A stretch of 64,000 nt of DNA from Alkalilimnicola ehrlichii (lineage in GTDB: Bacteria; Pseudomonadota; Gammaproteobacteria; Nitrococcales; AK92): NCBI RefSeq assembly GCF_003399765.1, contig NZ_NFZV01000001.1, positions 345,704-409,703 of the forward strand, written 5' to 3'. Position numbers and translations under genes: made by a program. The notes beneath the pieces were generated by a model. The model saw nothing but the letters and a program-made list of their open reading frames with translations. It ran no database searches and had not been told where the DNA came from. Positions 29,114 through 46,675 of this stretch are shown here, one piece after another. Within the stretch, counting starts at the first letter, position 1. Each line of letters begins with the position of its first letter.

Positions 29114-30724
29114 CTAAACGCTTTTTCGATCGGTCAGCTCTTCGAAGCTTAGGTTGAATTTGGCCAACATCTGTCGGAGACGGTGAGAGTCGTTGGTGGA
29201 ACGCTTGCGGGTGCGGGAGCGGTTAAACAGCAGGCGTCCGGCGTCGGAGAGGCTGCGGCATTGGGAGCAGACATCGATGATTTTAAGCAGTTGCCATTGG
29301 TCCAGCAGATCGATCTCCTGAAGCTCCGCTTCCGGAATATAATCGGCCAGATCGATGTTTGCTTCCGGTCCATGCGTTTGACTTCGGGGCTGCCAGTGAC
29401 GCTTGAGGCGGCCGATCTCGTCGTTAACGTTTTGCTCGGTGATTCTGCCGCCGTCCGCCAGGGTGCTCATCCGCTGAATCGCTGCATTCAGGTCGCGGAA
29501 GTTGCCGCGCCAGGTGGCCTCGGGGCTGAGGGCAAAGTCGAGAAAGCGCTGGCGCGCGGCTTTGTTGAGGCTCACTTTGTGGCCGTGCTGGATTTCCGCT
29601 TGCTGTAGTTCGTAATCGAGGTTTGGCTCAATATCCTCGCGACGATCTTTGAGGCCGGGGAGTCGATAAGACCACAGGTTGATGCGGGTCAGTAAGTCTT
29701 CCCGAAACTCGCCCCGCTGCACCTGCGTATGAAGGTCGCGATTGGTGCCGGCGATTAGCTGAAAGTCGCTTGCCTGCGGCGTGTCGGAGCCGACCGGATA
29801 AAACTGCTTCTCTTCTATGGCGTGCAGCAGCATGGCTTGCTCGTCCAGCCCCAGTTCACCGATTTCGTCGAGAAACAGCAGGCCGCGGTTCGCCTTGGAT
29901 AGCAACCCTTGGCGGGCGTGCTGGGCGCCGGTGAAGGCGCCTCGGGTGTGGCCGAACAAGGCCGACATGGCGCCATCGCCGCGAATGGTAGCGCAGTTGA
30001 CGGCGACGAACTCTCCTTCGATGAGCGAGCGTTTTCGCTTGAGTTCATAGATACGCTTGGCGAGCTGGGATTTGCCCGCCCCCGTGGGGCCAGTGATGAG
30101 GATCGGTGCCGTAGAGCGGATGGCGACCTTCTCGACCTGCTGGATGAGCTCATTGAAAGCCCGGTTGCGGGTGGCAATTCCGGACTTAAGAAATTCCGTG
30201 CCCTCCAGATGCTGGTTTCGGAAGCGGGAGTTGATGAGGTCGTATTTTGATAGATCGAGATCGATGATCTGGTGGTTGCCGGCCGCGCATCTCTCGCCCC
30301 GCGTCGGCGAGGTTTGGAGGATTTGCGCCGGTATGTAATTGGCTTCGCAGAGCAAAAACCAGCAGATCTGCGCCACGTGGGAGCCGGTGGTGATATGCAG
30401 CAGGTAGCGCTCTTCCTGAGGCTTGAAAGGATAGTTTTCGGCAAAGTCCAGCAGAGTGCTATAGACGTGCTCGAAATCCCAGGCATCGGTAAAGTTGATC
30501 TCGGTGAGCTTAACCTCGCTTCCCGGCGATACGGTTTCTATATCGGCGCCGATGTTGTTGGCTAGCCGTTCGTCCCGCCGGTCATGCAGCAACTCCAGCC
30601 GATCGACGATCAGATCCTCTTGCATGAAAATGCCTACCGTAGGTCGCCAAGCATCCCACCGTTTAACGCCTTTTCCCTTATTGTCCATGACGGAGCCGAG
30701 CAGCCCGATGACGACGGTTTTCAT
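29114..30724 (-). CDS. rtcR: sigma54-dependent transcriptional activator RtcR (CARF + AAA+ + HTH)
   Basis: aligns with E. coli RtcR from MKTVVIGLLGSV... through GAGKS, GAFTGA and ESELFGH-like motifs to the C-terminus; start at MKTVV, with the upstream extension of the ORF rejected. Confidence 0.9.
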   Translation of the reverse strand: MKTVVIGLLGSVMDNKGKGVKRWDAWRPTVGIFMQEDLIVDRLELLHDRRDERLANNIGADIETVSPGSEVKLTEINFTDAWDFEHVYSTLLDFAENYPFKPQEERYLLHITTGSHVAQICWFLLCEANYIPAQILQTSPTRGERCAAGNHQIIDLDLSKYDLINSRFRNQHLEGTEFLKSGIATRNRAFNELIQQVEKVAIRSTAPILITGPTGAGKSQLAKRIYELKRKRSLIEGEFVAVNCATIRGDGAMSALFGHTRGAFTGAQHARQGLLSKANRGLLFLDEIGELGLDEQAMLLHAIEEKQFYPVGSDTPQASDFQLIAGTNRDLHTQVQRGEFREDLLTRINLWSYRLPGLKDRREDIEPNLDYELQQAEIQHGHKVSLNKAARQRFLDFALSPEATWRGNFRDLNAAIQRMSTLADGGRITEQNVNDEIGRLKRHWQPRSQTHGPEANIDLADYIPEAELQEIDLLDQWQLLKIIDVCSQCRSLSDAGRLLFNRSRTRKRSTNDSHRLRQMLAKFNLSFEELTDRKSV

Positions 30725-30871
30725 ATTATCTATCTCGATAAAAATTATTCTAATTCGATAATTATTATCGAGCTGTTCCTCTTTTGCAATTCCAACGTTT
30801 TTTCGTGAATGAGCGTGTGATTTTTTTAAAAACAGAGGGTTAAATTTTTCTGCTGGGCTTTCTGAACAACT

Positions 30872-30887
30872 TGGCACGTTCATTGAT
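30872..30887 (+). promoter_or_regulatory. candidate sigma54 promoter divergent from rtcR, directed at the tRNA-like element
   Basis: TGGCACG-ttca-TTGAT with consensus -24 GG spacing; lies in the AT-rich rtcR upstream region, which also holds the palindrome CGATAAAAATTATTC/GAATAATTATTATCG (30727-30775). Confidence 0.4.
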
Positions 30888-30992
30888 ACCTCTCCTGCGA
30901 CTGCGGGATCGGCCACTACAGGGTTCTGATTCAAACGTCAGACCGGCATCGGTTTCCATGAAACTGGATGTTCCGCCACCCCGCAATCGCCG

Positions 30993-31426: not shown

Positions 31427-32575
31427 ATGTTGGGGTTTACGAAGAAAATGGTGGTTGCAGATGACGAGCGCGTGTTGCTGTTCAAACACCGTCAGTTCCA
31501 GCGGGTTCTGCAGCCTGGATGCCATCGCTTTTTCGATGGATTCAATAGGCTCTCTTTCGACGTGCTTAAGGTTCATCGGGCGGGGGTTGTGCATGAGCAA
31601 TTGGATCTACTGCTTAAGAAGCCGGCATTTTCCAGCCAGGTAGAGATATACCTCATGCAGGAAAACGAAGTAGGCGTGGTGTATGTGGACGGTAAGCCGC
31701 AGCGGGTTCTAGCGCCCGGCTCGCGTTGGGTGACCTGGAAGGACGCCCTGAATGTGGAGGTCCAAAGCTATGCGCTGGAGCAACTGGCTCCGATTAACGA
31801 GGTACTGCTAGCCGGGCTGTTGCGCGAAGGCTTGGATAAGGCCGGCGGTCAGTGGTGCATTAACCATGCCCTAGTACCGGACGGCCATATCGGCTTATTG
31901 TTCGAGAACGGCAAGCTGAACACGACCCTACAGCCTGGGCGTTACGGTTATTGGGCGTTTAATCGAGACGTTCAGATCCAGATTTTCGACCTCAGGTTGC
32001 AGATGGTGGACATCTCCGGGCAGGAAATCCTGACCAAGGATCGAGTGAGCTTACGACTGAATTTAAATGCCGTTTACCAGTATGCCGACGCCGTAAAGGC
32101 CGCGGAACAGCTCAGAAACGCGGGCGATTACATCTACAAGCGCTTGCAGCTTGCGTTGCGAGAAGCAGTGGGCACCCGCACTCTGGACGAGTTATTGGCG
32201 GATAAGGATGCGATCTCCAACGTGATTCTCAAGGATTGCCGAGACGCCCTAAAGGAATACGGGATCACCTTAGACCGGGTGGGGGTAAAGGACATCATTT
32301 TGCCGGGCGAGATGAAGGAGATTTTGAATCAGGTCGTGCAGGCGCAGAAGTGTGCGGAGGCGAATCTGATCAAACGTCGGGAAGAAACAGCGGCCACCCG
32401 CTCTTTGAGCAACACCGCGAAGATGATGGAGAAAAACCCGACGCTGCTGCGACTCAAAGAGTTGGAGGCACTGGAAAAAGTGGCCGAGCGGATCGACTGC
32501 ATCAATGTGTACGGCGGATTGGATACGGTAATGAACGATTTGGTTCGCCTAACGGATAAACGGGTAGCGGGATAG
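31427..32575 (+). CDS. SPFH/band-7 domain protein
   Basis: 382 aa; central SPFH domain and a coiled-coil C-terminus. Confidence 0.6.
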   Translation: MLGFTKKMVVADDERVLLFKHRQFQRVLQPGCHRFFDGFNRLSFDVLKVHRAGVVHEQLDLLLKKPAFSSQVEIYLMQENEVGVVYVDGKPQRVLAPGSRWVTWKDALNVEVQSYALEQLAPINEVLLAGLLREGLDKAGGQWCINHALVPDGHIGLLFENGKLNTTLQPGRYGYWAFNRDVQIQIFDLRLQMVDISGQEILTKDRVSLRLNLNAVYQYADAVKAAEQLRNAGDYIYKRLQLALREAVGTRTLDELLADKDAISNVILKDCRDALKEYGITLDRVGVKDIILPGEMKEILNQVVQAQKCAEANLIKRREETAATRSLSNTAKMMEKNPTLLRLKELEALEKVAERIDCINVYGGLDTVMNDLVRLTDKRVAG

Positions 32576-32652: not shown

Positions 32653-33500
32653 CTAAGCCTCGGGCATCGCCCCCACGTGACGTAAGATGTCTTTCGTAAT
32701 CGAAAGTCGGGCGTCGGCGGAGTCTGCGTGTTCCATATCAAGGTTCAGTGCAAAAAAGTACACCTCGCCGTCGCGCTCGACGTAACCGACAAACCATCCC
32801 AGTCCAGGCGTCGCAGGATCGCCAAACCCCGCCCATCCCGTTTTGCCGCTGAGGCGGTACTCCGGCGTTTCCTCCAGCACGAAGAGGTCTTTTGCGGTCT
32901 TCGTCGTTGCCGGCGATAGGCCTAACTCATCGAAGTAAAAGCGTTGCAAAAAGTCGACCTGGGCATCGGCCGAAACGCGCAGCGCCCCCGTCAACCAAAA
33001 GCGATCGATAGCGCCGCTCATATCGCCATTGCCGTACTTAAAGGCGTCCAAGTAGGTTTGCATGTGTTCCGCACCGATACGGCGGGCCAGCTCTTGGTAA
33101 TACCAAACCACAGAGTTTAAAAACGCGGTTTCAAGCGTATGCTCCTCTAACCACGCGGGTGGCCACCACGCTTGGGGCGGTGCGACGGCGTCATCGCGTT
33201 CCAGCGCAAACGCCGGCCCGTTGGCAACGCCTGTCTCCAACGCGATCAAGGTGTTCGGAATCTTGTAGGTCGATGCGGGTAGAAAGGCCGTTTGCGCCCG
33301 TTGCGGGTTATGGCGGATGACACGCTGGGCCTGCGGGTCCAGCAAAACAAAGGCTCCGTTCCGGCCTTCAAAAAGGGCGCAAGTTCCGCGGCGTCCGAAT
33401 CAGCGGGCGCTGCCGCAACGGCGGGCGAGGGCGGCTCAGACGAGCAGGCCGACAAGGAAAGCGAGAACACTAATAATGGCAATAAATGTCGCAGCTGCAT
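32653..33500 (-). CDS. class D (OXA-type) beta-lactamase, apparent 1-nt homopolymer frameshift near 33355
   Basis: motifs STYK (the S-x-x-K active site), SVV, YGN, KTG and WFVGY; lipoprotein-type signal peptide MQLRHLLPLLVFSLSLSAC in ORF 33246-33500; a T5 to T6 correction restores APFFEGRNGAFVLLDPQAQRV. Confidence 0.8.
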
Positions 33501-34167: not shown

Positions 34168-34520
34168 CTTCCCTCCGCTAATGCGGTCGGCTCGATCAAC
34201 GGGGTGCGCGTTTGCGTCGTTGCCGACCTGGTTCGTTAACCACACCTTAGCGCATTTTCCCGCCGCTTCGGTTTGCCCGCGCACCGGTAAATGGCTCTTC
34301 CACGAGTACGCCTTCGCGTTTCGTTTTGCCGGTTCAGCGTGTCGGCCAAGCGAAAGATGATCGGCCACTAGGCGCTGGGGAAGCATTCGTCCCCAGGCGA
34401 CATTCCGCTGGTTATTTGACAATTAATGCAGTTGAGACTTATTCTCAATTAAAATCTAAAACCCATAACTTCTATTCCGGGTGTCACAACTAAACGCCTG
34501 TACCGCGGGAAGGATATCCC

Positions 34521-35069
34521 ATGGGAGCGAATTCCCAAGCAAGGAAAGATCTACTGGCGGTTCTTTATAACAATCATCATCGCTGGCTGGTGCATTGGCT
34601 GCGCAAGAAGATCGGCTGCTCGGAGCAGGCCGCCGACCTGGCGCAAGATAGTTTCGTCAGGGTGATGGCCAGCCAGACCAATTTACACGCACTCTGCGAG
34701 CCTCGGGCTTATCTCACCAGAATCGCCACCCGTCTGCTGATCGACAGCGTTCGTCGCCGCCAAGTCGAACAGGCTTGGTACGAGAGCTGGGTGGGACTCT
34801 ACGGTAACGACGCCAGCATGGAACCCGCAACCGAGGCCTTAGTAGAAATGCTCGATTTGCTGGTGGCTATAACACGCATGCTCGAAGGCCTGCCGGAGAA
34901 GCCTCGCAAAGCCTTTCTCTGGAGCCGTCTGAAGGGCATGCCCTATGCCGAGATTGCCGCCCGTTTGGGCGTCTCGGTGGTCAGGGTAAAACAGTACATC
35001 GCCCGCGCCCTGCTGCATTGTCACGACATCCTTGAAGGTGAGGCAAACGGTGAAGGTCCCCGCCACTGA
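34521..35069 (+). CDS. ECF sigma factor, FecI-like
   Basis: 182 aa; sigma70 regions 2 and 4; immediately followed by a FecR-like gene. Confidence 0.8.
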   Translation: MGANSQARKDLLAVLYNNHHRWLVHWLRKKIGCSEQAADLAQDSFVRVMASQTNLHALCEPRAYLTRIATRLLIDSVRRRQVEQAWYESWVGLYGNDASMEPATEALVEMLDLLVAITRMLEGLPEKPRKAFLWSRLKGMPYAEIAARLGVSVVRVKQYIARALLHCHDILEGEANGEGPRH

Positions 35070-35094
35070 ATCTGCTACTACGCCCAGCCGCACC

Positions 35095-36045
35095 ATGATC
35101 GAGCAAGCTGCCCACTGGCATGCAACGCTTGGCTCGGAAACCGTGACCGAGGAGGAAAAGCAGGCGTGTGCAGCATGGCGGGCGGCGCATCCCAGCCATG
35201 AAGCAGCCTTTCAGCGCTTGCTGCGTGTGTGGGCGCCGCTGGAATCGCTAAACGACGAACTCAAGGAGCCGGCCCTGTCTACCGTTCAGGCGGTGGCGGG
35301 GCGCAAACTGCGTCGGCGCGGCGCACGGTTGGCATCGCTAGCGGGGGCGGTGTTACTAAGCGGTTGGCTGAGCTTTCAGTGGCTGTTACCGGCAGGGATG
35401 GGCGCCGATCATGCCACGCTCGCCGGAGAGCGTCGCGAGCTATTGCTTGACGATGGCAGTCGTCTGTTACTAAACAGCAGAACGGCGATTGATGTCCGCT
35501 ATAGCGATCGAGAGCGCCGCATCGTGCTGCATCGCGGAGAGCTGCTGATCGATGTCGGCCGGGATGCTGCGCGCCCATTTATCGTTGCGACCCGCTACGG
35601 TACCGCGGAAGCGCTGGGTACCCGCTATGCCGTCAGGCAGACCGCCGACGATGCGGCGGTGGTGACGGTGGCGCACTCCCGCGTCAGGTTTTGCCCGGCA
35701 CCGGAGGCGAGCGCCGAGCGTTGTCGGCTTTTGCGGGAGGGGGAGCAAAGCCGGGCCGGCGCCGACGGCGCAGCGACGTCCGCGATCGAGGTGGATGTCG
35801 AAGCGGCCACCGCCTGGACGAGGGGGCGGCTGGTTGTCGACGACTGGCCGTTGCCGCAAGTGCTCTCAGAGCTTGGTTACCATCGCCGCGGTTGGTTGAT
35901 TTTCCACGCGGATTCACTGCAAGACTTGCGCGTGTCCGGCGTTTTCCCTATCGACGATACCGACTTGGCCCTGGCCATTCTGGAGGCGAACTTACCGCTC
36001 ACTATCTCCCGCTATGGGCCTGTCACCCGAATCGCCCGCCACTAG
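35095..36045 (+). CDS. FecR-like anti-sigma factor / transmembrane sensor
   Basis: IEQAAHWHATL N-terminal anti-sigma domain, central TM segment and a periplasmic FecR domain. Confidence 0.75.
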   Translation: MIEQAAHWHATLGSETVTEEEKQACAAWRAAHPSHEAAFQRLLRVWAPLESLNDELKEPALSTVQAVAGRKLRRRGARLASLAGAVLLSGWLSFQWLLPAGMGADHATLAGERRELLLDDGSRLLLNSRTAIDVRYSDRERRIVLHRGELLIDVGRDAARPFIVATRYGTAEALGTRYAVRQTADDAAVVTVAHSRVRFCPAPEASAERCRLLREGEQSRAGADGAATSAIEVDVEAATAWTRGRLVVDDWPLPQVLSELGYHRRGWLIFHADSLQDLRVSGVFPIDDTDLALAILEANLPLTISRYGPVTRIARH

Positions 36046-36144: not shown

Positions 36145-38882
36145 ATGGGGTGCAACAAACTCATCCGCCGGACTGTCGGGTGGTGCGTGCTGTTGGCTGG
36201 GGGGCTGCTGGCGCTGACGCTTCACGCCGCCGAATCCGCGCATCGCTTCGACATACCGCCAGGCGGTCTTGACCAAACGCTGACGCAGTTTGCCTTGCAG
36301 GCAGGGCTTGTTCTGTATCTCGATCCTGCCTTGGCTCAGGGGCAAACCAGCCCGGGCCTGCAAGGCGAGTATCGGCCCCGGCACGGCCTGTCGCTCTTGC
36401 TAAGCGGTACCGGCCTCACCTATCGAGAGGATGCCGACAGCGGCGCCATCGCTATCGTACCTCGCGCCGCTATCGCCGCCAGCGAGCGGCAGTCGCTGCC
36501 GGCGCTACTGATCGAGGCGCGGCCCTGGAGTCCGGGAGACGACGCCTACACCGGTTCGGGCTCGGCCAATGTGCTCACACAGCGGGATATCGAGCTTTTT
36601 CGGGGTAGCTCCGTGGGCGATATCTTCCAGGGCACGCCCGGCGTGCTGGTGGGGGAGAACCGCAACAGCGGCGGCCTGGACCTCAACATCCGCGGCATGC
36701 AGGGGCAGGGGCGGGTGCCGGTGCTGATTGACGGCAGCCGGCAGGAAACGACGGTACACCGCGGCTATGCCGGCGTCGCTTCCCGTAGTTATGTGGACCC
36801 GGATCTGATCGGCGGCATTCGTATCGACAAAGGGCCGAGCATGACGGCCGAAGGCAGCGGCGCGGTCGGTGGGCTGGTCAGCATGCGCACCCTGGAGCCC
36901 AACGACATCATCAAGGACGGCAAGGATTTCGGCGTCCGGCTTCGAGGTACCGCCATCGGCAATAACAGCGGTCGCACTCCTAGCCCCGGCACGCCGGCGG
37001 GTTATAACACAGGCAATCCGTTTGCCGGCGCAGCGGTCTACCGCACGGACTGTATCGTTGCGAGCCTGTGCCAGGGCGAGTACGCACTGCCCGAACGCTT
37101 CGCCCCGGAGGCCGGTATGGATCGCCCCGGCCTGCTGGAGCCGAAAAGCCATGCCGCCAGCGTGGCCGTTGCCGGGCGCTTGGCCTGGGCGGATCTGCTC
37201 GCCGCTTATGCGGAGCGCCGCCAGGGCAATTATTACGCCGGCAGGCACGGTCGCACGCCGTCCATCGACCTCTCCGATGTACGCGAATTGCCCTTCTACA
37301 CCGAGGTGCGGCCGGTACTGCGCGGCGCTTCCCGATTCCGAGGCGGGGAGCGCATCGTTAACAGCAACTACGAGAGCCAGTCGGTTCTACTCAAGGGCCA
37401 GCTCTGGCTGCCGCGCGAGCAAAACCTGGAATTAAGCTACCTGAATTACCGCAGTACCTACGGCGAGTTGATGCCCTCGCAACTCATGTGGTTCGACCAA
37501 GTCCGGCAGACGGCCTCAAGCGAGGTAACGGCAAACACCTACACCGCCCGTTACCGCTGGGATCCGTTCGCCTCCGATTATTTCGACCTACGCGCCAATC
37601 TTTGGCATACCGATACGCGTAGCAGTAACGACCCCTACTTCGTGCCGGGCGCCGATGGCGAGCCGATGGAAATGGGCGGAACCGGCTCCGAACACTATCG
37701 CCGCTGGGGAGCGGACCTTAGCAACAGCATGCGCTTTGAGGGCTTCGGCCGGCTGGAGGCCCGCTACGGCGGTTCCGCGCAATTAGAAAAGCTCCGCCCC
37801 CGCGGCGAGATCGCCGAGGACACCCCGAGCGACAACCGCGACGGCGATCGCCATGAGCTTAGCGCGTTTGCCGCGCTGGAATATCAACCGCTACCTAGCG
37901 TCACCTTAGAAGCCGGTATCCGGCACACCCGCTTCCGCTCCAAAGACAACACGCCCATGGCGATCGACCCGGGCAACGAATACTGCCCCGAGCCCGACGG
38001 CGACGGCGGCTGCCTCCCCTTTACCTACCGAAGCCGCAATCACGGCACCGTGCCTATGGCCGGCCTTACCTGGGAGCCCGTCGCCGGCATTCGGCTCTAT
38101 GCCCGCTACGCCGAGGCGCTCCGCATGCCCAGTTTGTTCGAAACCACCCAAGGATTCTCGGTGGCGCCGACCCCCGGCCTGGACCTAAAACCGGAGCACG
38201 CTTACCACCGCGAAGTGGGCATCAATATGCTGCGCCATGGGTTGCTCGGCGAAAGCGACCGACTTGGGTTACGCATCGCCTACTTCCGCAACCGCGTTAA
38301 AGACTATATCACCCGCACGCCGCGCAACCTGTGGGAGGAGGAAACCGACAACTTCCAGCAAAACATGTTCCGCATCCGCAACATCGAAAGCGCAAGCTTT
38401 CATGGCTACGAAGTGTCGGCGGAGTATGACGCAGGGTGGTTGTTCGGAGAGTTCGGCGGCACCTGGTACAGCAACATCGAAACCTGCCACGAAGGTAGCT
38501 ATCGTCGTCAAAGCTGCACCGATTACGGCGTGCCGCGCAGCTACATCAATAACATGATCCCCCCAACTGGCATAGCAGCGCCACCCTCGGCACACGGCTA
38601 TTCCAGCAGCAGCTGGAGCTTGGCGCTCGCGGCACCTTCATGGGGCAGCGCACCCCGCTTCCTCCCACTGACAGCTCGCAATTCCAGAGCTTTGCCGCGC
38701 CGGTGTCCTGGCACCGCTATCGCGTGTACGACGTGTTCGCCAGCTACCGGCCCAACGACACCGTCAGCGTCGATTTCAACATCGACAACGTCACGGACCG
38801 TTACTACATCGACGCGCTCAGCCTAGGGCTGGTGCCTGCTCCCGGGCGCACGGCCCGGTTGAGCCTGACGCTTCATTACTAA
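36145..38882 (+). CDS. TonB-dependent transducer (receptor with N-terminal STN signalling domain), apparent 1-nt homopolymer frameshift near 38562
   Basis: signal peptide, STN domain (FDIPPGGLDQTLTQFALQAGL), plug and barrel; C-terminal ...LSLTLHY found in ORF 38640-38882; a C6 to C7 correction joins the frames. Confidence 0.8.
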
Positions 38883-38903: not shown

Positions 38904-41207
38904 ATGAATAGGCCCTTACCGCTGTTTGCCCTAGGCTGCTGCCTGCTATGGCTGAGTGCCTGCGGCGGCAGTAGCAGCACGTCCCGCCCCACGGCCGACG
39001 CCGGTCCCGACCGGACGGTGGAGATGGGGGATACCGTCGTGCTCGATGCCGGCGGCAGCAGCACGCCTAACGGCGACGGCTCATTAAGTTACACGTGGTC
39101 CTTGATCGCGCAACCGGAGTTCAGCAAAGCCGAGCTGGAGGGGAGCGATACGATCGCCACCCGCTTCGTCGCCGACTTACCCGGCCGCTACGTGGCCAAT
39201 TTGACCGTCGACGACGGCACTCGGCAAAGCCAGCCCAGCCGCGTCACGATAACGGCGACCAACCCCTACCCGGTGGCCGTGGTGCGGCCGATCTACAACG
39301 AACTGCTGGGGGCCCAGGTCACGCTGGACGGTACCCGCAGCGTGCCGCCCAGCGGCGCCGACTCAGCCGAGCTGAGCTTTCGCTGGACGCTGACCGAGCG
39401 GCCGGAGGAGAGCAACGCCACCTTGTTCGACGCCACCACCGCAACACCCTGGCTGGAAGCCGACGCCGTCGGCACCTACAGCGCCGAGCTGGTGGTGAGC
39501 CACGCCGGGCAGAGCAGCGAACCGGCCGTCGTCACCGTCACGGTCACCCCGCTCAACACCGTGCCGGTGGCCGACGCCGGCGGCGACCGCAGCGTGCCCT
39601 TCGGCCGTGTGCACCTGGACGGCAGCGGTAGCTACGACGCCGACGGCGACCCGCTCAGCTACCGCTGGCGCTTCGCCAAAGCCGTCCACCAGCCGGCGGT
39701 GCGCTACAAGAACATCCCCATCGGCTCGCAGACCGAGCTGGCGGACGCGGATACCGCCACCCCGTACTTCGACCCGGACCTTCCCGGCGACTACGAAGTC
39801 ACCCTGTACGTGTTCGACGGCACCTCTCGCAGCGCAGTCTCCCGCGCCACCATTACCGTGGAAGCGCCGGAGAGGGACGAGAACACGCCCCCGGTGGCGG
39901 TGCTCCAGTACGACGGCCCGGACAATGCCGAGCCCTACGAAGTGGAGCCGGGCGTCGGCTGGCAGGCTTACGTCTACCCCGCCAGCGGCTCCTACGACGT
40001 GGACGGCGATCCGCTGGCCCACCATTGGGAATGGATCAGCTACCCCAACGGCTTCGACCCGGACGGGCCGCACGTGAACCTGCGCCGCGACAACCCCGGT
40101 CACCGGAGTGCGTACTTCACCCCCACCGAGCAGGGCGAGTACGTGTTGCAGCTCACCGTCAACGACGGCAGCGTGGACAGCGAACCGGCGCAAATCGTCT
40201 TCAACGCCCGCCTCGGCGCCAACCGCCCGCCGGTCGCTGTCGCCGATGCCGACAGCATCACCGCGCTGGTGGGCAGCTCGGTGGGGTTGGACGGCACCGG
40301 TAGCTACGACCCCAACGACGATCCGCTGAGCTACCACTGGCGCCTGATCGACCGGCCCGACCACAGCCAGGCCTCGCTGTCCGACCCCGACAGCGCCCGC
40401 CCCAGCTTCGTGCCCGACGAACCGGGCGCCTACATCGCCGAGCTTACCGTCCGAGACCATCACGGATTGGTCAGCTATCCGCCGGACGAGGTCACCGTCA
40501 TGGCCAAGACCCACAACACGCCGCCGGTGGTGAACCCTGCCATGAGTCGAGGCTTAAGCACCGAGCAGCCGTTTACTCTCGGCCAACCCTTTGGAGCGCA
40601 AAGCTTTGGGGTGCGTGCCAATGCCTACGACGTGGACGGCGACCCGCTGTACTACCTGTTCGTTCTCGCCCAGCAGCCGGCGGGCAGCAACCTGCCGGAG
40701 GCCTCAGACGGCAACGGCCGCGTCTTCTGGAACCTCACGCCGGAGGTGCCGGGTACCTACGTCTTTGAGGTGGCGGTCAGCGACGGTATCGACACCACGT
40801 CCGGGGTCGTCAAGGTCGGCGTGGTGGAGCGGGAGGATTATCCCGGGCTGTTGCTGGAAAACGCACACTGCGCGGTCGGCAGCTATCGCCAGCAGACCTT
40901 CCCATTCAGTCGGTATCCTACCTTTAGTGCAGAGGATCGCTGCCACAGTCTCTACCGCCTGACCGCCGTCGACCGCGATTACACCATCGTCAACCTACAC
41001 ACGGCCTCCGATCATTTCGGCTACGTCCCCTGGTTCGATGGCCTGGAGGACGGCCAGGTCATCGCCCAGGGCGAGGAGGTCGTGTTTTCGGTTTGGACCC
41101 CCGCCGTTCCTGAACATGAGCCTGTCTCTGCAATGAGCCTGGGTTTCAGCGTGGCGGAAAAGCCGGGCTGGGATTTCCAGTACCGGGTGCGGCCTCCTCT
41201 CGATTGA
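38904..41207 (+). CDS. large lipoprotein with 5-6 tandem PKD/Ig-like repeats
   Basis: lipobox LWLSAC; repeated about 95-aa units each with ADAGxDRxV...LDG(S/T)GS.D.DGDPLSY(R/H)W signatures; the C-terminal about 150 aa are unrelated. Confidence 0.7.
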   Translation: MNRPLPLFALGCCLLWLSACGGSSSTSRPTADAGPDRTVEMGDTVVLDAGGSSTPNGDGSLSYTWSLIAQPEFSKAELEGSDTIATRFVADLPGRYVANLTVDDGTRQSQPSRVTITATNPYPVAVVRPIYNELLGAQVTLDGTRSVPPSGADSAELSFRWTLTERPEESNATLFDATTATPWLEADAVGTYSAELVVSHAGQSSEPAVVTVTVTPLNTVPVADAGGDRSVPFGRVHLDGSGSYDADGDPLSYRWRFAKAVHQPAVRYKNIPIGSQTELADADTATPYFDPDLPGDYEVTLYVFDGTSRSAVSRATITVEAPERDENTPPVAVLQYDGPDNAEPYEVEPGVGWQAYVYPASGSYDVDGDPLAHHWEWISYPNGFDPDGPHVNLRRDNPGHRSAYFTPTEQGEYVLQLTVNDGSVDSEPAQIVFNARLGANRPPVAVADADSITALVGSSVGLDGTGSYDPNDDPLSYHWRLIDRPDHSQASLSDPDSARPSFVPDEPGAYIAELTVRDHHGLVSYPPDEVTVMAKTHNTPPVVNPAMSRGLSTEQPFTLGQPFGAQSFGVRANAYDVDGDPLYYLFVLAQQPAGSNLPEASDGNGRVFWNLTPEVPGTYVFEVAVSDGIDTTSGVVKVGVVEREDYPGLLLENAHCAVGSYRQQTFPFSRYPTFSAEDRCHSLYRLTAVDRDYTIVNLHTASDHFGYVPWFDGLEDGQVIAQGEEVVFSVWTPAVPEHEPVSAMSLGFSVAEKPGWDFQYRVRPPLD

Positions 41208-41359
41208 TGCCGGAGGGAGCGAAGGCGATGAGGGAGCCGGGCTATGTCCTTTACCAGCAAACAAACAAGGAGGTGATGCCGACACGATCGATCCGGTACG
41301 CCAGTACCCAAACACGCAAACGTAATGCTTTCGTTAATGTGAAACACAGGAGATACATC

Positions 41360-42106
41360 ATGAAATACGTAAATCTGAACCTGCTGGCCGTGGCGATCAT
41401 GGCTGTAAGCGGCGCCGCCCAGGCTACGGTGGTGGGCACCCAGAGCGACGACACCTATATCGAAGTCGGTGCGGCCACCGTCTTCGGCGGCCCCCATACC
41501 CCCGGCGGCCCCGGTGTCGGGGTTTACACCATGGGCAAGGCCAATAAGGTCGACTTTGCCGGCCTGCAAGGCGTGGTGCCGCCTAACGCGGACGGTGTGA
41601 CTACAATCCACAACCCCATCGCGGACAACCATGGCGGCATGGGCGTGTTCGACTTCGCCAAGGTGGCGGGCCACGAGGTCTACTTCGGCGAGTGGAGCAC
41701 GGCAGGGGACGTTACCGACGGCACCCACACCGTCTACTACGCCGGTGAAGGGGCCACCGCCAGCATGCCCACCTCCGGGACGGCGGAGTATTCCGTCGCG
41801 GGCCTCAGCGACTATGCCAGCAACGGGTTGCTGAGCGGGACGCTCACCGCTGACTTTGGTGCCAATACCTTGTCCGGGGGCATGCAAAACGGCGATACCG
41901 GATACTCCATCGACATCGGAACGGCCACGATAAGCGGCAATACCTTTGTCGGTGGTGGTGCTAGGGCTGAGCTCTCCGGAGTAGAGCTGGCCCGAGACGG
42001 TAATGTGGAAGGCCACTTCTTCGGCGCCAACGCCGCGGCTCTGGCCGGCATCGCCACCTTTGCCGACAGCCAGTACGACGCCGCCTTCGGCGGCTCCCGA
42101 GACTAA
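41360..42106 (+). CDS. secreted TbpB-fold beta-barrel protein (hemophilin/HphA-like type XI secretion cargo candidate)
   Basis: SPI signal peptide MKYVNLNLLAVAIMAVSGAAQA with no lipobox; the C-terminal EGHFFGANAAALAGIATF...AAFGGSRD matches the TbpB C-lobe/hemophilin barrel signature; start moved to MKYV, which has an AGGAG RBS. Confidence 0.6.
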   Translation: MKYVNLNLLAVAIMAVSGAAQATVVGTQSDDTYIEVGAATVFGGPHTPGGPGVGVYTMGKANKVDFAGLQGVVPPNADGVTTIHNPIADNHGGMGVFDFAKVAGHEVYFGEWSTAGDVTDGTHTVYYAGEGATASMPTSGTAEYSVAGLSDYASNGLLSGTLTADFGANTLSGGMQNGDTGYSIDIGTATISGNTFVGGGARAELSGVELARDGNVEGHFFGANAAALAGIATFADSQYDAAFGGSRD

Positions 42107-42205
42107 TGGCGGCCGTTTAACGGTCGGTGTCTTTAGTCGTAACAGCGAGCGCCGCTCTGCGGGCGCTCGTTTCTCGTTTGTTCCGATTCCGCCAGAGTTC
42201 CAGCG

Positions 42206-43684
42206 ATGACGATTGCAATCCCTCTACGCCGGCTGCTGGTTGTGGCGCTGTGTGTGTATAGCCTGGCCGTCGCGGCCGACCCGGATACGCCCCTGCGGCT
42301 CGAACAGCGCCTGGAGCACAGTGCCGCCGATCAAGAGCGCGAACTGCTACGAGAGGCGCTCGATGCCGACGGCGAACACCCCCAGCTTTTGATCGACGGT
42401 CGTCACTATCGGGTTGAGAACACATTGGATGATCTGGGCCGGGCCTTGTATTTATCCGTGCGCGCCCAGCAGTGGTCGGCGGTGCGGCATTTTCTCGCGG
42501 CGTACCGAAGCCTGTCCGGGCACGACCCGATGCTGGTGCACTACGCGCAAGGCGGACTTGCCCGGGCGGAGGGCCGCTTAGTCGAGGCGGAGCGTGAGTA
42601 TGAGGCGCTGCTAGCCATCCAGCCCGAGTTCCTGCCTGGTCGGTTGGAATTGGCGCGGGTGCTGTTCGAGAACCACAAGGATCGCGAGGCGGCTGACCGC
42701 TTCCGCGATATTCGCGCCTCGCTGGACCCCGCCGACCGCCGCGTGGACGGCTTGCGCCGCAGCGTCGAGTTGTTCCTGGAAGCGCTGGAGCGCCGGCGCC
42801 GCTGGCAAGGCTCGCTGGCGGTGGGCGGCGTCTGGGACGACAACCTAAACCGCTCCTCCGAGGATCGCACCTGCCTGGCGGCCGATGCCGCCGGCAACTG
42901 CATCATCGAGCGCCGCATTCCCGAGGCGATTACCGCCCACGGCCTGGATTTCGAGATGGCGGCGAACCGGCGCCTGCCGCTACGGGGGCAGCATGGCCTG
43001 TACCTGCGCTCGCTGTTGTTCGGCGCCGTCTATAAGAAGCAGACACCCTACAACGAAATGACCAGCATCACGCACGCCGGCTACCACTACCGCACCGCGC
43101 GCGGGCATTACGCCGTCGCGCCCTTATTCGAAATCCATCGCTTGGGCAACCAGACTCAGCACGGCGCCTGGGGCGCCCATGCCGAATGGCAGCGCCACCT
43201 ATCGCCCAACAGTTCGCTGAGGGTGGAAGGTCATCACAAGACGCTGCGCTATCGGCCCGATCTGTATGCGCATCATGACGGCAGCCAGCGGGCGGTATAC
43301 GCCACCCTCTGGCATGCCAGGCCTTCGGGGTGGATGCTGTTGGGCGGGGTGGACCAGCTGGAGCGTTCGACCGAGTATCGGGCGGACAGCTATCGCCAGT
43401 ATGGGGCGCGGCTGGGGGTGATACGGCAATTTGACGCCGGTTTCGAAACCAGCCTGTTCACCGCTTTTCGCCAACGGCAATATCAGGCCGACAACCCTTT
43501 GCTCGAACAGCGGCGCCGAGACGAGGAACAAACATACACCCTGACCCTCCGCGCTCAACGCTTCAGCACCTTGGGCCTGACGCCGGCCTTGAGCTTACGG
43601 CATCAGCGCGTCGACAGCTCGGTCGACTGGTTATACAGCTACCAGCGCAACACCGCCAGCTTAAAGCTGGAACGCCGCTTTTAG
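42206..43684 (+). CDS. Slam-family outer-membrane protein (DUF560), type XI secretion system
   Basis: 492 aa; signal peptide, N-terminal TPR-containing periplasmic domain and C-terminal barrel ending ...SYQRNTASLKLERRF, the DUF560/Slam hallmark. Confidence 0.7.
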   Translation: MTIAIPLRRLLVVALCVYSLAVAADPDTPLRLEQRLEHSAADQERELLREALDADGEHPQLLIDGRHYRVENTLDDLGRALYLSVRAQQWSAVRHFLAAYRSLSGHDPMLVHYAQGGLARAEGRLVEAEREYEALLAIQPEFLPGRLELARVLFENHKDREAADRFRDIRASLDPADRRVDGLRRSVELFLEALERRRRWQGSLAVGGVWDDNLNRSSEDRTCLAADAAGNCIIERRIPEAITAHGLDFEMAANRRLPLRGQHGLYLRSLLFGAVYKKQTPYNEMTSITHAGYHYRTARGHYAVAPLFEIHRLGNQTQHGAWGAHAEWQRHLSPNSSLRVEGHHKTLRYRPDLYAHHDGSQRAVYATLWHARPSGWMLLGGVDQLERSTEYRADSYRQYGARLGVIRQFDAGFETSLFTAFRQRQYQADNPLLEQRRRDEEQTYTLTLRAQRFSTLGLTPALSLRHQRVDSSVDWLYSYQRNTASLKLERRF

Positions 43685-44020: not shown

Positions 44021-44165
44021 AGACGGCCGCCACCACCGGCGGTTAGCCCGAGCCTTCGCGTCAAAGGCGGCGGGAGCGGTGTTGCGTCTGTGCGATGACG
44101 AACACCGTCCTCCTGTGCTTGTGCGATGGCCGGTTGTGGAACCACACGCGCAGATGGGATGCAAC

Positions 44166-45923
44166 ATGTCGAACCTCTTTCTGTCCCCACACGATAACGT
44201 CTCGCCGTCGAACGCCGGCTATCGCATCGACGTTTCCAATACCATCAACGAGTACCTGCAACGGCAGGATTGGCGAGTTAACGCCAATGCCAATCAAGGC
44301 TATTCGCTGGGCGGTTTGATTCTGAATAGCGCCGGCAAGATGGTGGCCAATTATTGGCTTGAGCAGGTTTACCCGGCCGCCATCGGGCAAGCGCACCGCG
44401 ACGGCGATATACATATTCACGATCTGGATATGCTCTCGGGTTACTGCGCCGGCTGGTCGCTGCGGACGTTGCTGCATGAAGGGCTCAACGGGGTGCCGGG
44501 CAAAGTCGAAGCCGCGCCGCCCAAGCATTTGTCCTCGGCGGTGGGGCAGATCGTTAATTTCCTCGGCACGCTGCAGAACGAATGGGCCGGCGCCCAAGCC
44601 TTCAGCTCCTTCGATACCTATCTCGCGCCCTTCATTCGCAAGGATAAGCTCGCCTACGCCGAGGTCCGGCAATGCATACAGGAGCTGATCTACAACCTCA
44701 ACGTGCCGTCGCGGTGGGGGACGCAAACGCCGTTTACGAATCTTACCTTCGATTGGACGTGCCCGGAGGATTTAAAAGATCAGGTGCCTATCGTCGGCGG
44801 CGAGGAAATGCCGTTTAGCTACGGCGAGCTGCAAACCGAAATGGACATGATCAATCGCGCCTACATCGAGGTCATGACCGAGGGCGATGCCAAGGGCAGG
44901 GTGTTTACCTTTCCCATTCCGACTTACAACATCACGGCGGATTTTCCCTGGGACAGCGAGAACGCCGAGCGGCTGTTCGCGATGACGGCCAAATACGGGC
45001 TGCCGTATTTCCAGAACTTCGTGAATTCGGATCTTGAGCCGCATATGGTTCGCAGCATGTGCTGCCGCCTGCAATTGGATTTGCGCGAGCTACTCAAACG
45101 CGGCAACGGGCTATTCGGCAGCGCCGAGCAAACCGGCTCGCTGGGTGTCGTCACCGTCAATTGCGCGCGGTTGGGCTACCTATATCGAGGCGACGAGGCC
45201 GGATTATTTGCCCGGCTGGATACGCTGCTGGCGCTTGGCCGCGACAGTCTGGAGATCAAGCGGCGGACTATTCAGGCGTTAATGGACAACGGTCTCTTTC
45301 CCTATACCAAGCGCTACCTGGGCACCCTGCGCAATCATTTCTCGACGCTGGGCGTTAACGGCATTAACGAGATGATCCGCAACTTCAGCGCCGACGCCGA
45401 CGACCTTACCACCGCGCACGGCCATGCGCTTGCGGTTCGCTTGCTCGATCGCATCCGTGCGCGTATGACGGAGTTTCAAGAGGCGACGGGGCATCTTTAC
45501 AACCTGGAAGCGACGCCCGCCGAAGGGACGACCTACCGCTTCGCCAAGGAAGACCGCAAGCGTTACCCGGACATTATCCAGGCAGGCACGCCCGAGAATC
45601 CTTATTACACCAATTCGTCACAGCTGCCTGTGGGTTTCACGGACGACCCGTTCGAGGCGCTTGAGCGGCAGGAAGCGCTACAGACTCGCTATACCGGCGG
45701 CACCGTGCTGCATCTTTATATGGGCGAGCGGATATCGAGCACCGATGCCTGTCGCCGCTTGGTGCGGCGCGCGTTGGAGCGTTTTCGCCTGCCCTACATC
45801 ACGGTGACGCCAACCTTTTCCATTTGCCCTATTCACGGCTACCTGAGCGGAGAGCACGAATTCTGCCCCCGCTGCGACGAAAACTTAATCGCTAACCAAC
45901 AAAAGGAGGCGCACGATGCCTAA
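44166..45923 (+). CDS. nrdD: anaerobic ribonucleoside-triphosphate reductase (class III) large polypeptide, without ATP cone or glycyl-radical motif
   Basis: about 585 aa; ends with a Zn-ribbon-like CPIH...CPRC; followed by a glycyl-radical ORF and nrdG; the start is ambiguous (44153 or 44166). Confidence 0.65.
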   Translation: MSNLFLSPHDNVSPSNAGYRIDVSNTINEYLQRQDWRVNANANQGYSLGGLILNSAGKMVANYWLEQVYPAAIGQAHRDGDIHIHDLDMLSGYCAGWSLRTLLHEGLNGVPGKVEAAPPKHLSSAVGQIVNFLGTLQNEWAGAQAFSSFDTYLAPFIRKDKLAYAEVRQCIQELIYNLNVPSRWGTQTPFTNLTFDWTCPEDLKDQVPIVGGEEMPFSYGELQTEMDMINRAYIEVMTEGDAKGRVFTFPIPTYNITADFPWDSENAERLFAMTAKYGLPYFQNFVNSDLEPHMVRSMCCRLQLDLRELLKRGNGLFGSAEQTGSLGVVTVNCARLGYLYRGDEAGLFARLDTLLALGRDSLEIKRRTIQALMDNGLFPYTKRYLGTLRNHFSTLGVNGINEMIRNFSADADDLTTAHGHALAVRLLDRIRARMTEFQEATGHLYNLEATPAEGTTYRFAKEDRKRYPDIIQAGTPENPYYTNSSQLPVGFTDDPFEALERQEALQTRYTGGTVLHLYMGERISSTDACRRLVRRALERFRLPYITVTPTFSICPIHGYLSGEHEFCPRCDENLIANQQKEAHDA

Positions 45924-46077
45924 TACGGCCGTCGAACTGAAGACTGAAGAACGCACTCGTTGCGAGGTATGGACGCGAGTGATGGGCTATCACCGCCCGG
46001 TCGCGAGCTGGAATGTCGGCAAGCAAGGAGAGCACAAAGAGCGGCAATTCTTTCGGGAGCACCATGACTCGGCCTGA
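45916..46077 (+). CDS. small glycyl-radical domain protein (NrdD C-terminal module encoded separately)
   Basis: 53 aa; TRVMGYHRPVASWNVGKQGEHKERQ matches the NrdD R-V-x-G-Y...FN-GK glycyl-radical motif; perfect SD AAGGAGG 6 nt upstream of the ATG; overlaps the nrdD stop and the nrdG start. Confidence 0.5.
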   Translation: MPNTAVELKTEERTRCEVWTRVMGYHRPVASWNVGKQGEHKERQFFREHHDSA

Positions 46078-46675
46078 GCTTCGGGTAGGGGGCGTTAGCC
46101 CCCTTACGACGATCGATTATCCCGGCGAGCTTGCCGCCGTTGTGTTCTGCCAGGGGTGTCCGTGGCGTTGTCATTACTGCCATAACCCGGAACTGTTGCC
46201 GGCTCGCGGTGTGGCCGGTATTGCGTGGGGCCGGGTGCTGGATTTCTTGCAGCGGCGGCGCGGTTTGCTGGATGCGGTGGTGTTCTCCGGCGGCGAGCCG
46301 ACGTTGCAGCCGGCGCTGGCGCCGGCGATCCTCCAAGTTCGTGAGCTGGGGTTTCGCATCGGCTTGCACACCGCCGGTATGTATCCCAAACGTCTTAAAG
46401 CGCTGCTGCCGTTACTGGATTGGGTCGGCTTGGATATCAAAGCCTTACCCGATCGCTATGCGGAGATCACTCAGGTGCGGCGCAGCGGTGGCGCGGCTTG
46501 GCGGAGCGCGGAGATCATAGCCGCCAGCGGCGTTGCCCACGAGGTTCGGATTACCCAGTATCGACCGGCTATCGACGCCGAGCACCTGAATGCGTTGCAG
46601 CGAAAGCTGCGGGCGCTTGGCGTTGAGAACATGCGGGTTCAACCCTGTCGCGTTCCGGAGGTGCGGCTATCATGA
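46064..46675 (+). CDS. nrdG: anaerobic ribonucleotide reductase activating protein (radical SAM)
   Basis: CQGCPWRCHYCHN is a Cx3Cx2C-type cluster; about 200 aa; start ambiguous (46013 or 46064). Confidence 0.8.
   Translation: MTRPELRVGGVSPLTTIDYPGELAAVVFCQGCPWRCHYCHNPELLPARGVAGIAWGRVLDFLQRRRGLLDAVVFSGGEPTLQPALAPAILQVRELGFRIGLHTAGMYPKRLKALLPLLDWVGLDIKALPDRYAEITQVRRSGGAAWRSAEIIAASGVAHEVRITQYRPAIDAEHLNALQRKLRALGVENMRVQPCRVPEVRLS

Follow-up and report, generated by a model that had tools for sequence, protein, structure and literature searches.

In a 64,000-nucleotide stretch of the genome of Alkalilimnicola ehrlichii (contig NZ_NFZV01000001.1, positions 345,704 to 409,703; hereafter the window), we studied a gene that codes for a lipoprotein with a chain of PKD/Ig-like repeats and a separate C-terminal domain, which we call the head. 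We consider it reasonably likely that this PKD protein serves a Has-like heme uptake system with cell-surface signalling, as its accessory or co-receptor lipoprotein in the outer membrane. The protein is probably a helper of heme uptake rather than a chance neighbour or a typical cargo of Slam, the type 11 secretion outer-membrane protein that is encoded nearby. Its surface exposure, its ligand and its contact with the receptor are what we infer from the evidence below. The coordinates of the features are collected in table 1.

Conserved Linkage with a Signalling Receptor

About 23 distinct cassettes, the window included, were obtained either by exact-protein look-up or by scanning genomes and metagenomes with a pattern, and they were scored by tblastn with the window proteins. 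It should be noted that the pattern scan used a subset of seven sequences and sampled only members with the motif YR[LM]TA[FVY]D[RQK]D, and the sample of loci is therefore biased. Across these cassettes, we found a recurring order of sigma factor, FecR, TonB-dependent transducer with an STN domain, and PKD gene. The receptor gene is located directly 5′ of the PKD gene in 19 of 19 scorable cassettes (gap −19 to +125 nt), and no cassette contradicts this arrangement. The sigma gene was found at the first position in 19 related cassettes, and elsewhere the upstream DNA is missing or FecR alone was detected. In addition, the pairwise distances of PKD proteins and receptors are correlated (r = 0.64), and the neighbour-joining trees of the two proteins share the main clades. 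Both marks of a receptor accessory were thus observed: the gene is conserved next to that of a TonB-dependent receptor, and the two are co-inherited.

In contrast, Slam follows the PKD gene (within two genes) in only 10 of the 23 cassettes, the window counted, and no Slam was found 3′ of the PKD gene in the other 13, over a distance of up to about 10 kb as far as the contig reaches. Since the receptor precedes the PKD gene in every scorable cassette and Slam follows it in only these 10, the constant partner is the receptor and not Slam. A sequence-only reading of the stretch had placed the PKD gene between the TonB-dependent transducer and a hemophilin-like gene. This is indeed the arrangement, with the STN transducer on the 5′ side and HphA and Slam on the 3′ side. 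The same reading had offered three explanations of the protein, namely a second Slam-dependent surface lipoprotein, a ligand-capturing co-receptor, and an unrelated adhesin. Synteny supports the co-receptor best of the three; the link to the receptor stands, and the capture of a ligand is what we infer beyond it.

The receptor of the window is matched by the heme-receptor model TIGR01785 (1.9e-83, below its cut-off), and its nearest solved structures are HasR (4e-38), followed by PhuR and ShuA. At least ten cassettes, among them L005, L008, L011, L012, L014, L018, L022, L023, and L024, contain or adjoin a heme oxygenase gene. Furthermore, both L005 and L024 have ExbB-ExbD-TonB genes, and L024 also has a heme-type ABC transporter.

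Start Site, Lipobox, and Repeats

The PKD gene starts with an ATG that has AAGGAG 8 nt upstream, and the distance between the restored stop codon of the receptor gene (see below) and this start is 21 nt. The N-terminus of the protein is MNRPLPLFALGCCLLWLSAC, in which the lipobox L-S-A-C20 (LWL-S-A-C20) is followed by the Gly/Ser linker GGSSSTS. A signal peptide ending in [LVI][ASTVI][GAS]C was found, and by this pattern the product is a predicted bacterial lipoprotein. The 767-aa lipoprotein with an LSAC lipobox that had been read from the letters alone is thus in agreement with the open reading frame (ORF) and its N-terminal sequence. The public A. ehrlichii entry named PKD domain-containing protein (P0001, 727 aa) is 100% identical and is annotated from Met41 (window region 38904-39023). 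In an alignment of 40 full-length family members, Met1 is invariant and Cys20 is conserved in at least 90%. Because both residues are conserved across the family, we favour the start at 38904 over Met41, and the NCBI start probably removes the lipoprotein signal peptide and the lipobox of the A. ehrlichii protein.

Self-comparison of the protein gave six repeats, which are 28–45% identical to each other with E-values down to 5e-18. The motif D-x-D/N-G/D-D-P-L is present in R3-R6. Membership of the PKD/Ig-like group was judged on the Pfam families PF22352, PF18911, and PF17963. The matches were K319L-like_PKD (2e-40; 137 bits against a curated cut-off of 27), PKD_4 (5e-26; 91 against 27), and Big_9 (2e-16; 61 against 23.6), and REJ was also found (5e-17). 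The repeats are thus PKD/Ig-like, as the sequence-only reading had proposed together with the Pfam check that was run here, and its count of five or six can be fixed at six. An AlphaFold2 model of the full-length protein is all-beta, with six Ig-like domains and the head (predicted local distance difference test, pLDDT, 87.7; predicted template modelling score, pTM, 0.69), and the only structures that it resembles are generic Ig-domain strings, among them titin, contactins, and cadherins. Meanwhile, counterpart repeats align across the family, each at 32–41% mean pairwise identity. Since every repeat aligns with its own counterpart family-wide and Met1 and Cys20 are conserved, the architecture looks old and fixed rather than like that of a rapidly shuffling adhesin.

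The Head Domain and Its Family

The head comprises about 125 aa and is unrelated to the six repeats in the comparison of units. At the family level, it is characterized by the motifs YPxLLLE, FPY, YRLTAFDRDYTI, GLxxGQVIxKGE, and WSFxIAEKPGWTF, and its loop insertions are variable. We found no match to it in Pfam or NCBIfam, and none among the PDB sequences even when it was used as a profile. The sequence-only reading had left a C-terminal region of about 150 aa unrecognised; the absence of a known match holds, and the size should be reduced to about 125 aa. A model built from an alignment of 31 sequences has nine strands and is all-beta (pLDDT 92.4, pTM 0.85), and the head is confidently modelled as an Ig-like beta-sandwich, not as the 8-stranded barrel of Slam cargo. 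A Foldseek search with this model returned nothing at E <= 1e-3. The best matches, all weaker than this threshold, were the Ig-fold domain of VesC/VesB, GH123, MSP, and the lectin domain of FmlH, and some accessory beta-sandwich domains of glycoside hydrolases were also among the best structural matches.

By its sequence, the PKD protein belongs to a small and as yet uncharacterised family, which comprises about 50 clusters at 50% identity. The full-length search gave 1768 database proteins at E <= 1e-10, and most of them match through the PKD repeats only. BLASTP with the head alone returned a subset of 770–890 aa proteins that carry the head at the extreme C-terminus. An exhaustive HMMER search over 1.84 billion representatives gave 58 matches, about six of which are WD40 false positives; the multi-stretch matches P0128, P0142, P0165, P0169, and P0175 were discarded as WD40 proteins. 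Word-indexed protein searches returned nothing with the head alone and one protein with the head profile, which is a limitation of the index, as the family was recovered by BLASTP and HMMER. Nearly all members are lipoproteins of 770–890 aa that share the head, and nearly all full-length members have a lipobox and a Gly-rich or poly-Gly linker, as in LLLAACGGGG. The same head also occurs in a few complete lipoproteins of other lengths, some shorter (about 260–530 aa) and some longer (1123–1219 aa), as would be expected if the stalk varies while the head stays constant.

The carriers belong to three bacterial classes, with species in Gamma- and Betaproteobacteria and in Desulfurispirillum. They include Alloalcanivorax dieselolei B5 (two tandem cassettes), A. 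xiamenensis, Marinobacter daepoensis, Desulfurispirillum indicum S5, Kerstersia gyiorum and K. similis (two loci each), Pigmentiphaga, Xylophilus, Pseudorhodoferax, Lampropedia, and Corticibacter. In addition, there are several metagenome contigs and a record labelled Pantoea sp. 18069 (L011). The last groups with Burkholderiales loci in the PKD tree (nearest L025, then Xylophilus L012) and resembles them in gene content, and the record may be mislabelled or contaminated.

These observations bear on the possibility that the PKD protein is an unrelated adhesin, or a generic PKD surface protein, that stands beside the receptor by accident. PKD-repeat proteins are indeed very common, as the matches through the repeats alone show. 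However, head-bearing proteins directly follow the same receptor type in all scorable cassettes, across three classes, and the six repeats are individually orthologous throughout the family. The sequence-only reading had also reasoned that absence of the gene from all orthologous Slam loci would suggest an incidental neighbour; the PKD gene was found in nine Slam loci besides that of the window. We therefore regard an incidental adhesin as extremely improbable, and the synteny survey rejects it.

Some further features of the cassettes were observed. Two sigma-FecR-receptor-PKD cassettes stand in tandem in A. dieselolei (L001) and in the metagenome locus L008, and in A. xiamenensis (L024) a second tandem cassette runs off the contig end past its receptor. 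In Kerstersia, the two cassettes are at separate loci (L017/L020 and L015/L019), one copy with hemophilin-Slam and the other without. In some Slam-less loci, a protein with TPR_12 repeats is encoded 3′ of the PKD gene (L001 12571-13213) or of the heme oxygenase (L023 9583-10938). A DUF454 gene is paired with the heme oxygenase beside the cassette in L005 (13237-13599) and L008 (3998-4381).

Relation to Hemophilin and Slam

In each Slam cassette, a secreted hemophilin-like protein of 255–300 aa is encoded between the PKD gene and Slam, directly 5′ of Slam. The interposed proteins form one divergent hemophilin-like family, 33–79% identical to each other and about 30% identical to HphA of the window; HphA_N matched four of the eight that were scanned, and one weak match to NF041636 was found. 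The nine Slam-linked cassettes of Burkholderiales form one clade in the neighbour-joining trees of both PKD protein and receptor, with the window outside it, and the neighbour of the window in the PKD tree is the Slam-less L021, whose downstream gene is rpmH. The hemophilin-Slam pair is an optional module that was either added to the cassette two or more times or repeatedly lost.

It could be asked whether the PKD protein is itself a second Slam (type 11 secretion) cargo that is flipped to the surface alongside hemophilin. Neisserial Slam-dependent lipoproteins share a lipobox and a Gly/Ser-rich linker, and both are present here. Furthermore, the PKD gene lies two genes 5′ of Slam in the window as well as in the nine other loci, and Slam linkage occurs in two separate lineages of the cassette. 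However, the modelled head is an Ig-like sandwich; the AlphaFold check that had been suggested for an 8-strand barrel in the C-terminal region was negative. A C-terminal 8-stranded barrel defines the known cargo of Slam and the type 11 secretion system (T11SS) (10.1101/2024.09.26.615229, 10.1101/2023.03.29.534853). The PKD protein matched neither NF041636 nor TbpB_B_D (PF01298), by which such barrels were sought, and it matched neither PF22828 nor PF22829 (HphA_N and HphA_C), both of which match the neighbouring gene. The profile comparison of the head with HphA of the window (hhalign) gave a probability of 0.1%. In addition, 13 of the 23 cassettes have no Slam 3′ of the PKD gene over the up to about 10 kb that the contigs cover, and every Slam-linked locus already encodes a hemophilin-like cargo directly 5′ of Slam. 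We think a second Slam-dependent lipoprotein quite unlikely; all that still speaks for it is adjacency to Slam in 10 of the 23 loci.

Comparison with described lipoproteins leads to similar contrasts. Like TbpB, LbpB, and HpuA, the PKD protein is encoded beside a TonB-dependent receptor for a host iron source, and its lipobox is followed by a Gly-rich linker. However, those proteins consist of a handle and 8-stranded barrel lobes that are needed for Slam recognition, whereas the PKD protein consists of PKD repeats and an Ig-like sandwich and matches neither NF041636 nor TbpB_B_D; moreover, the receptor gene comes first in the present gene order. The window also resembles the HphA/HsmA (Slam)/HphR system of A. 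baumannii and Haemophilus, as it has a clear HphA, a Slam, and a TonB-dependent receptor. Here, however, the PKD gene stands between receptor and hemophilin, and in relatives it persists without hemophilin and Slam. Described hemophilin clusters are composed of Slam, hemophilin, and receptor (PMC8560813, 10.1101/2023.03.29.534853), and the term PKD is absent from all hemophilin and T11SS papers that we found, these two included. This is consistent with the statement of the sequence-only reading that no such component is part of described hemophilin systems. In addition, a search of the literature for PKD lipoproteins linked to TonB-dependent heme receptors gave nothing relevant, and neither did one for Alcanivorax with PKD, TonB, and iron. 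The PKD protein can be placed in the functional class of receptor-associated lipoproteins by way of a new domain family, and it lies outside the Slam-cargo and hemophilin families.

Orientation of the Protein and Points against a Role in Heme Uptake

The PKD protein could also be an outer-membrane lipoprotein that faces the periplasm, where its chain would span the space to the STN domain, FecR, TonB, or a heme ABC transporter and would act as a scaffold or in regulation. Lipoproteins that follow the default Lol sorting stay on the inner leaflet of the outer membrane, and six Ig domains would be long enough to cross the periplasm. Furthermore, the linkage to a signalling (sigma/FecR) receptor type is strict, and the 13 Slam-less cassettes encode no surface-export machinery. 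On the other hand, PKD, cadherin-like, and Big_9 chains with Asp-rich D-x-D-G-D loops are typically extracellular or at the surface, and an anchor followed by a stalk and a distal beta-sandwich head is reminiscent of surface binding proteins, although neither argument is decisive. On balance, we think a periplasmic orientation unlikely.

Several observations weigh against the co-receptor explanation that we favour. First, the 13 Slam-less cassettes offer no evident route of export to the surface, and for this reason the PKD protein may face the periplasm. Second, no His, Cys, or Met of the head is invariant in the family alignments, the sole invariant aromatics of the head (Tyr693 and Phe748) could be purely structural, and no feature of the PKD-protein sequence suggests heme binding. 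Third, the receptor scored 281 bits with TIGR01785, below the trusted cut-off of 316.85 of this heme-receptor model. Finally, the receptor gene is frameshifted in the window, so that the system could be inactive in this strain. The orthologue alignment switches frame at the C6 homopolymer (38559-38564), and one added C gives a receptor of 912 aa with a canonical C-terminus (RLSLTLHY) that ends at 38882. The frameshift could be a sequencing error, a pseudogene, or a case of slippage.

Proposed Mechanism

As an outer-membrane accessory of the receptor, the PKD protein might work as follows. The gene would be co-transcribed with the receptor gene across the short gap between them. Sec would export the product, Cys20 would be lipidated, and the lipoprotein would be sorted to the outer membrane; this sorting is proposed because the +2 residue is Gly, according to the Lol rule. 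The PKD chain would be a stalk that keeps the C-terminal head away from the membrane, and the head may bind a heme-bearing ligand or dock a hemophore, raise its local concentration at the receptor, and pass the ligand on. Receptor and lipoprotein would then form a bipartite receptor in the functional sense, by analogy with lipoproteins of the TbpB/HpuA or SusE/F type. Meanwhile, the adjacent hemophilin-Slam pair would supply the same receptor with a separate, added hemophore module and would not be the export machinery of the PKD protein.

Two known systems can be compared with this scheme. The Has system of Serratia and Pseudomonas (HasI, HasS, HasR, and HasA) has the same order of sigma factor, anti-sigma factor, signalling heme receptor, and accessory heme-acquisition gene. 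However, HasA is a small secreted alpha/beta hemophore with type I export, whereas the gene 3′ of the receptor here codes for a 767-aa PKD lipoprotein, and the Pfam scan gave no HasA-family match. SusE and SusF of the polysaccharide utilization loci of Bacteroidota are lipoproteins encoded 3′ of a TonB-dependent transporter, with N-terminal Ig-like spacers and distal beta-sandwich binding domains. The PKD protein is similar in its gene position and in its Ig-like chain with a distal sandwich, but this is an architectural analogy only, as the phylum is different, the context is heme and not glycan, and there is no SusD partner.

Other Features of the Window

Table 1. Features of the PKD lipoprotein cassette in the window (amino acid ranges of the repeats in brackets).
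Feature	Position (nt)	Strand	Basis or remark
ECF (extracytoplasmic function, FecI-type) sigma factor, first cassette gene	34521..35069	+	Pfam Sigma70_r2/r4_2; NCBIfam FecI-like 1.7e-44
FecR-type anti-sigma factor	35032..36045	+	Pfam DUF4880 and FecR; NCBIfam FecR 4.8e-53, below model cut-off
HasR-like TonB-dependent transducer (STN, plug, and barrel), frameshifted	36145..38882	+	Pfam STN, Plug, barrel
C6 homopolymer breaking the receptor frame (−1 frameshift)	38559..38564	+	Orthologues imply C7
PKD-repeat lipoprotein gene	38904..41207	+	ATG start, 767 aa
Type II signal peptide, lipobox L-S-A-C	38904..38963	+	Cys20 codon 38961-38963, Gly at +2
Six PKD/Ig-like repeats	38994..40829	+	Pfam, pairwise repeat comparison, AlphaFold2 model
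Repeat R1 (31-119)	38994-39260	+	Self-comparison
Repeat R2 (120-217)	39261-39554	+	Self-comparison
Repeat R3 (218-322)	39555-39869	+	Self-comparison
Repeat R4 (328-436)	39885-40211	+	Self-comparison
Repeat R5 (441-536)	40224-40511	+	Self-comparison
Repeat R6 (540-642)	40521-40829	+	Self-comparison
Family-defining C-terminal domain, modelled Ig-like beta-sandwich (643-767)	40830..41204	+	Motifs YPxLLLE, FPF/Y, YRLTAxDRDYTI, GLxxGQVIxxGE, FSVAEKPGW
Hemophilin HphA, signal-peptidase-I type signal peptide, optional module	41360..42106	+	HphA_N 7e-38, HphA_C 6e-30, NF041636 3.7e-41
Terminator-like GC-rich hairpin and T-rich tail, between hphA and slam	42144..42171	+	Consensus scan only
Slam / type 11 secretion outer-membrane protein, optional module	42206..43684	+	SlipAM 2e-56, TPR_Slam 9e-26

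The start of hphA is most likely the ATG at 41360, which follows AGGAG and would give the signal peptide MKYVNLNLLAVAIMAVSGAAQA. A TTG-initiated ORF of 300 aa (41204..42106) overlaps the stop codon of the PKD gene and is over-extended. With the ATG start, a spacer of 152 nt is left between the PKD gene and hphA (window 41204-41359). Read-through into slam might be attenuated by the strong terminator-like hairpin between hphA and slam.

GC content is about 64% across the six-gene locus (36–44 kb) and 55–60% in the flanks. As the locus is GC-richer than its flanks, horizontal acquisition is suggested. Just 3′ of the locus, NrdD (anaerobic ribonucleotide reductase) and its radical-SAM activase are encoded (window 44079-46675). 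The same two genes also adjoin the cassette in Desulfurispirillum indicum (L007 331-3274), which may be a coincidence.

A candidate sigma-70-like promoter with a short palindrome was found 5′ of the sigma gene (34416-34445). A scan of the 64-kb window for Fur boxes was uninformative, as the best matches had 6/19 mismatches and there were nine such sites. On the minus strand, an ORF of 230 aa (32653-33345) has only a partial transpeptidase domain of a penicillin-binding protein and may be a gene fragment. RtcR (29114-30934, minus strand) and an SPFH protein (31427-32575, plus strand) are encoded near it.

Implications

Heme piracy is usually described as a receptor with a hemophore (Has, hemophilin/Slam) or as a receptor with a barrel-type lipoprotein (HpuAB, TbpAB). 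The PKD family adds a third type of accessory, which is strictly linked to the receptor and has its own undescribed domain, and the head merits its own family model for annotation. The family spans marine hydrocarbon degraders (Alcanivorax and Marinobacter), Kerstersia and other Burkholderiales, and one Chrysiogenota species.

More tentatively, Proteobacteria and Chrysiogenota may possess a two-component heme receptor, composed of a HasR-like signalling receptor and a long-stalk PKD lipoprotein. The head could then be a cell-anchored hemophore or a docking arm for secreted hemophilin, and the surface would be reached without the barrel signal of Slam cargo. If this is true, the pair of HasR-like receptor and PKD lipoprotein would be a previously unrecognised type of receptor. 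Furthermore, if the PKD protein is exposed at the surface without a Slam-type barrel, this would bear on how Proteobacteria display surface lipoproteins.

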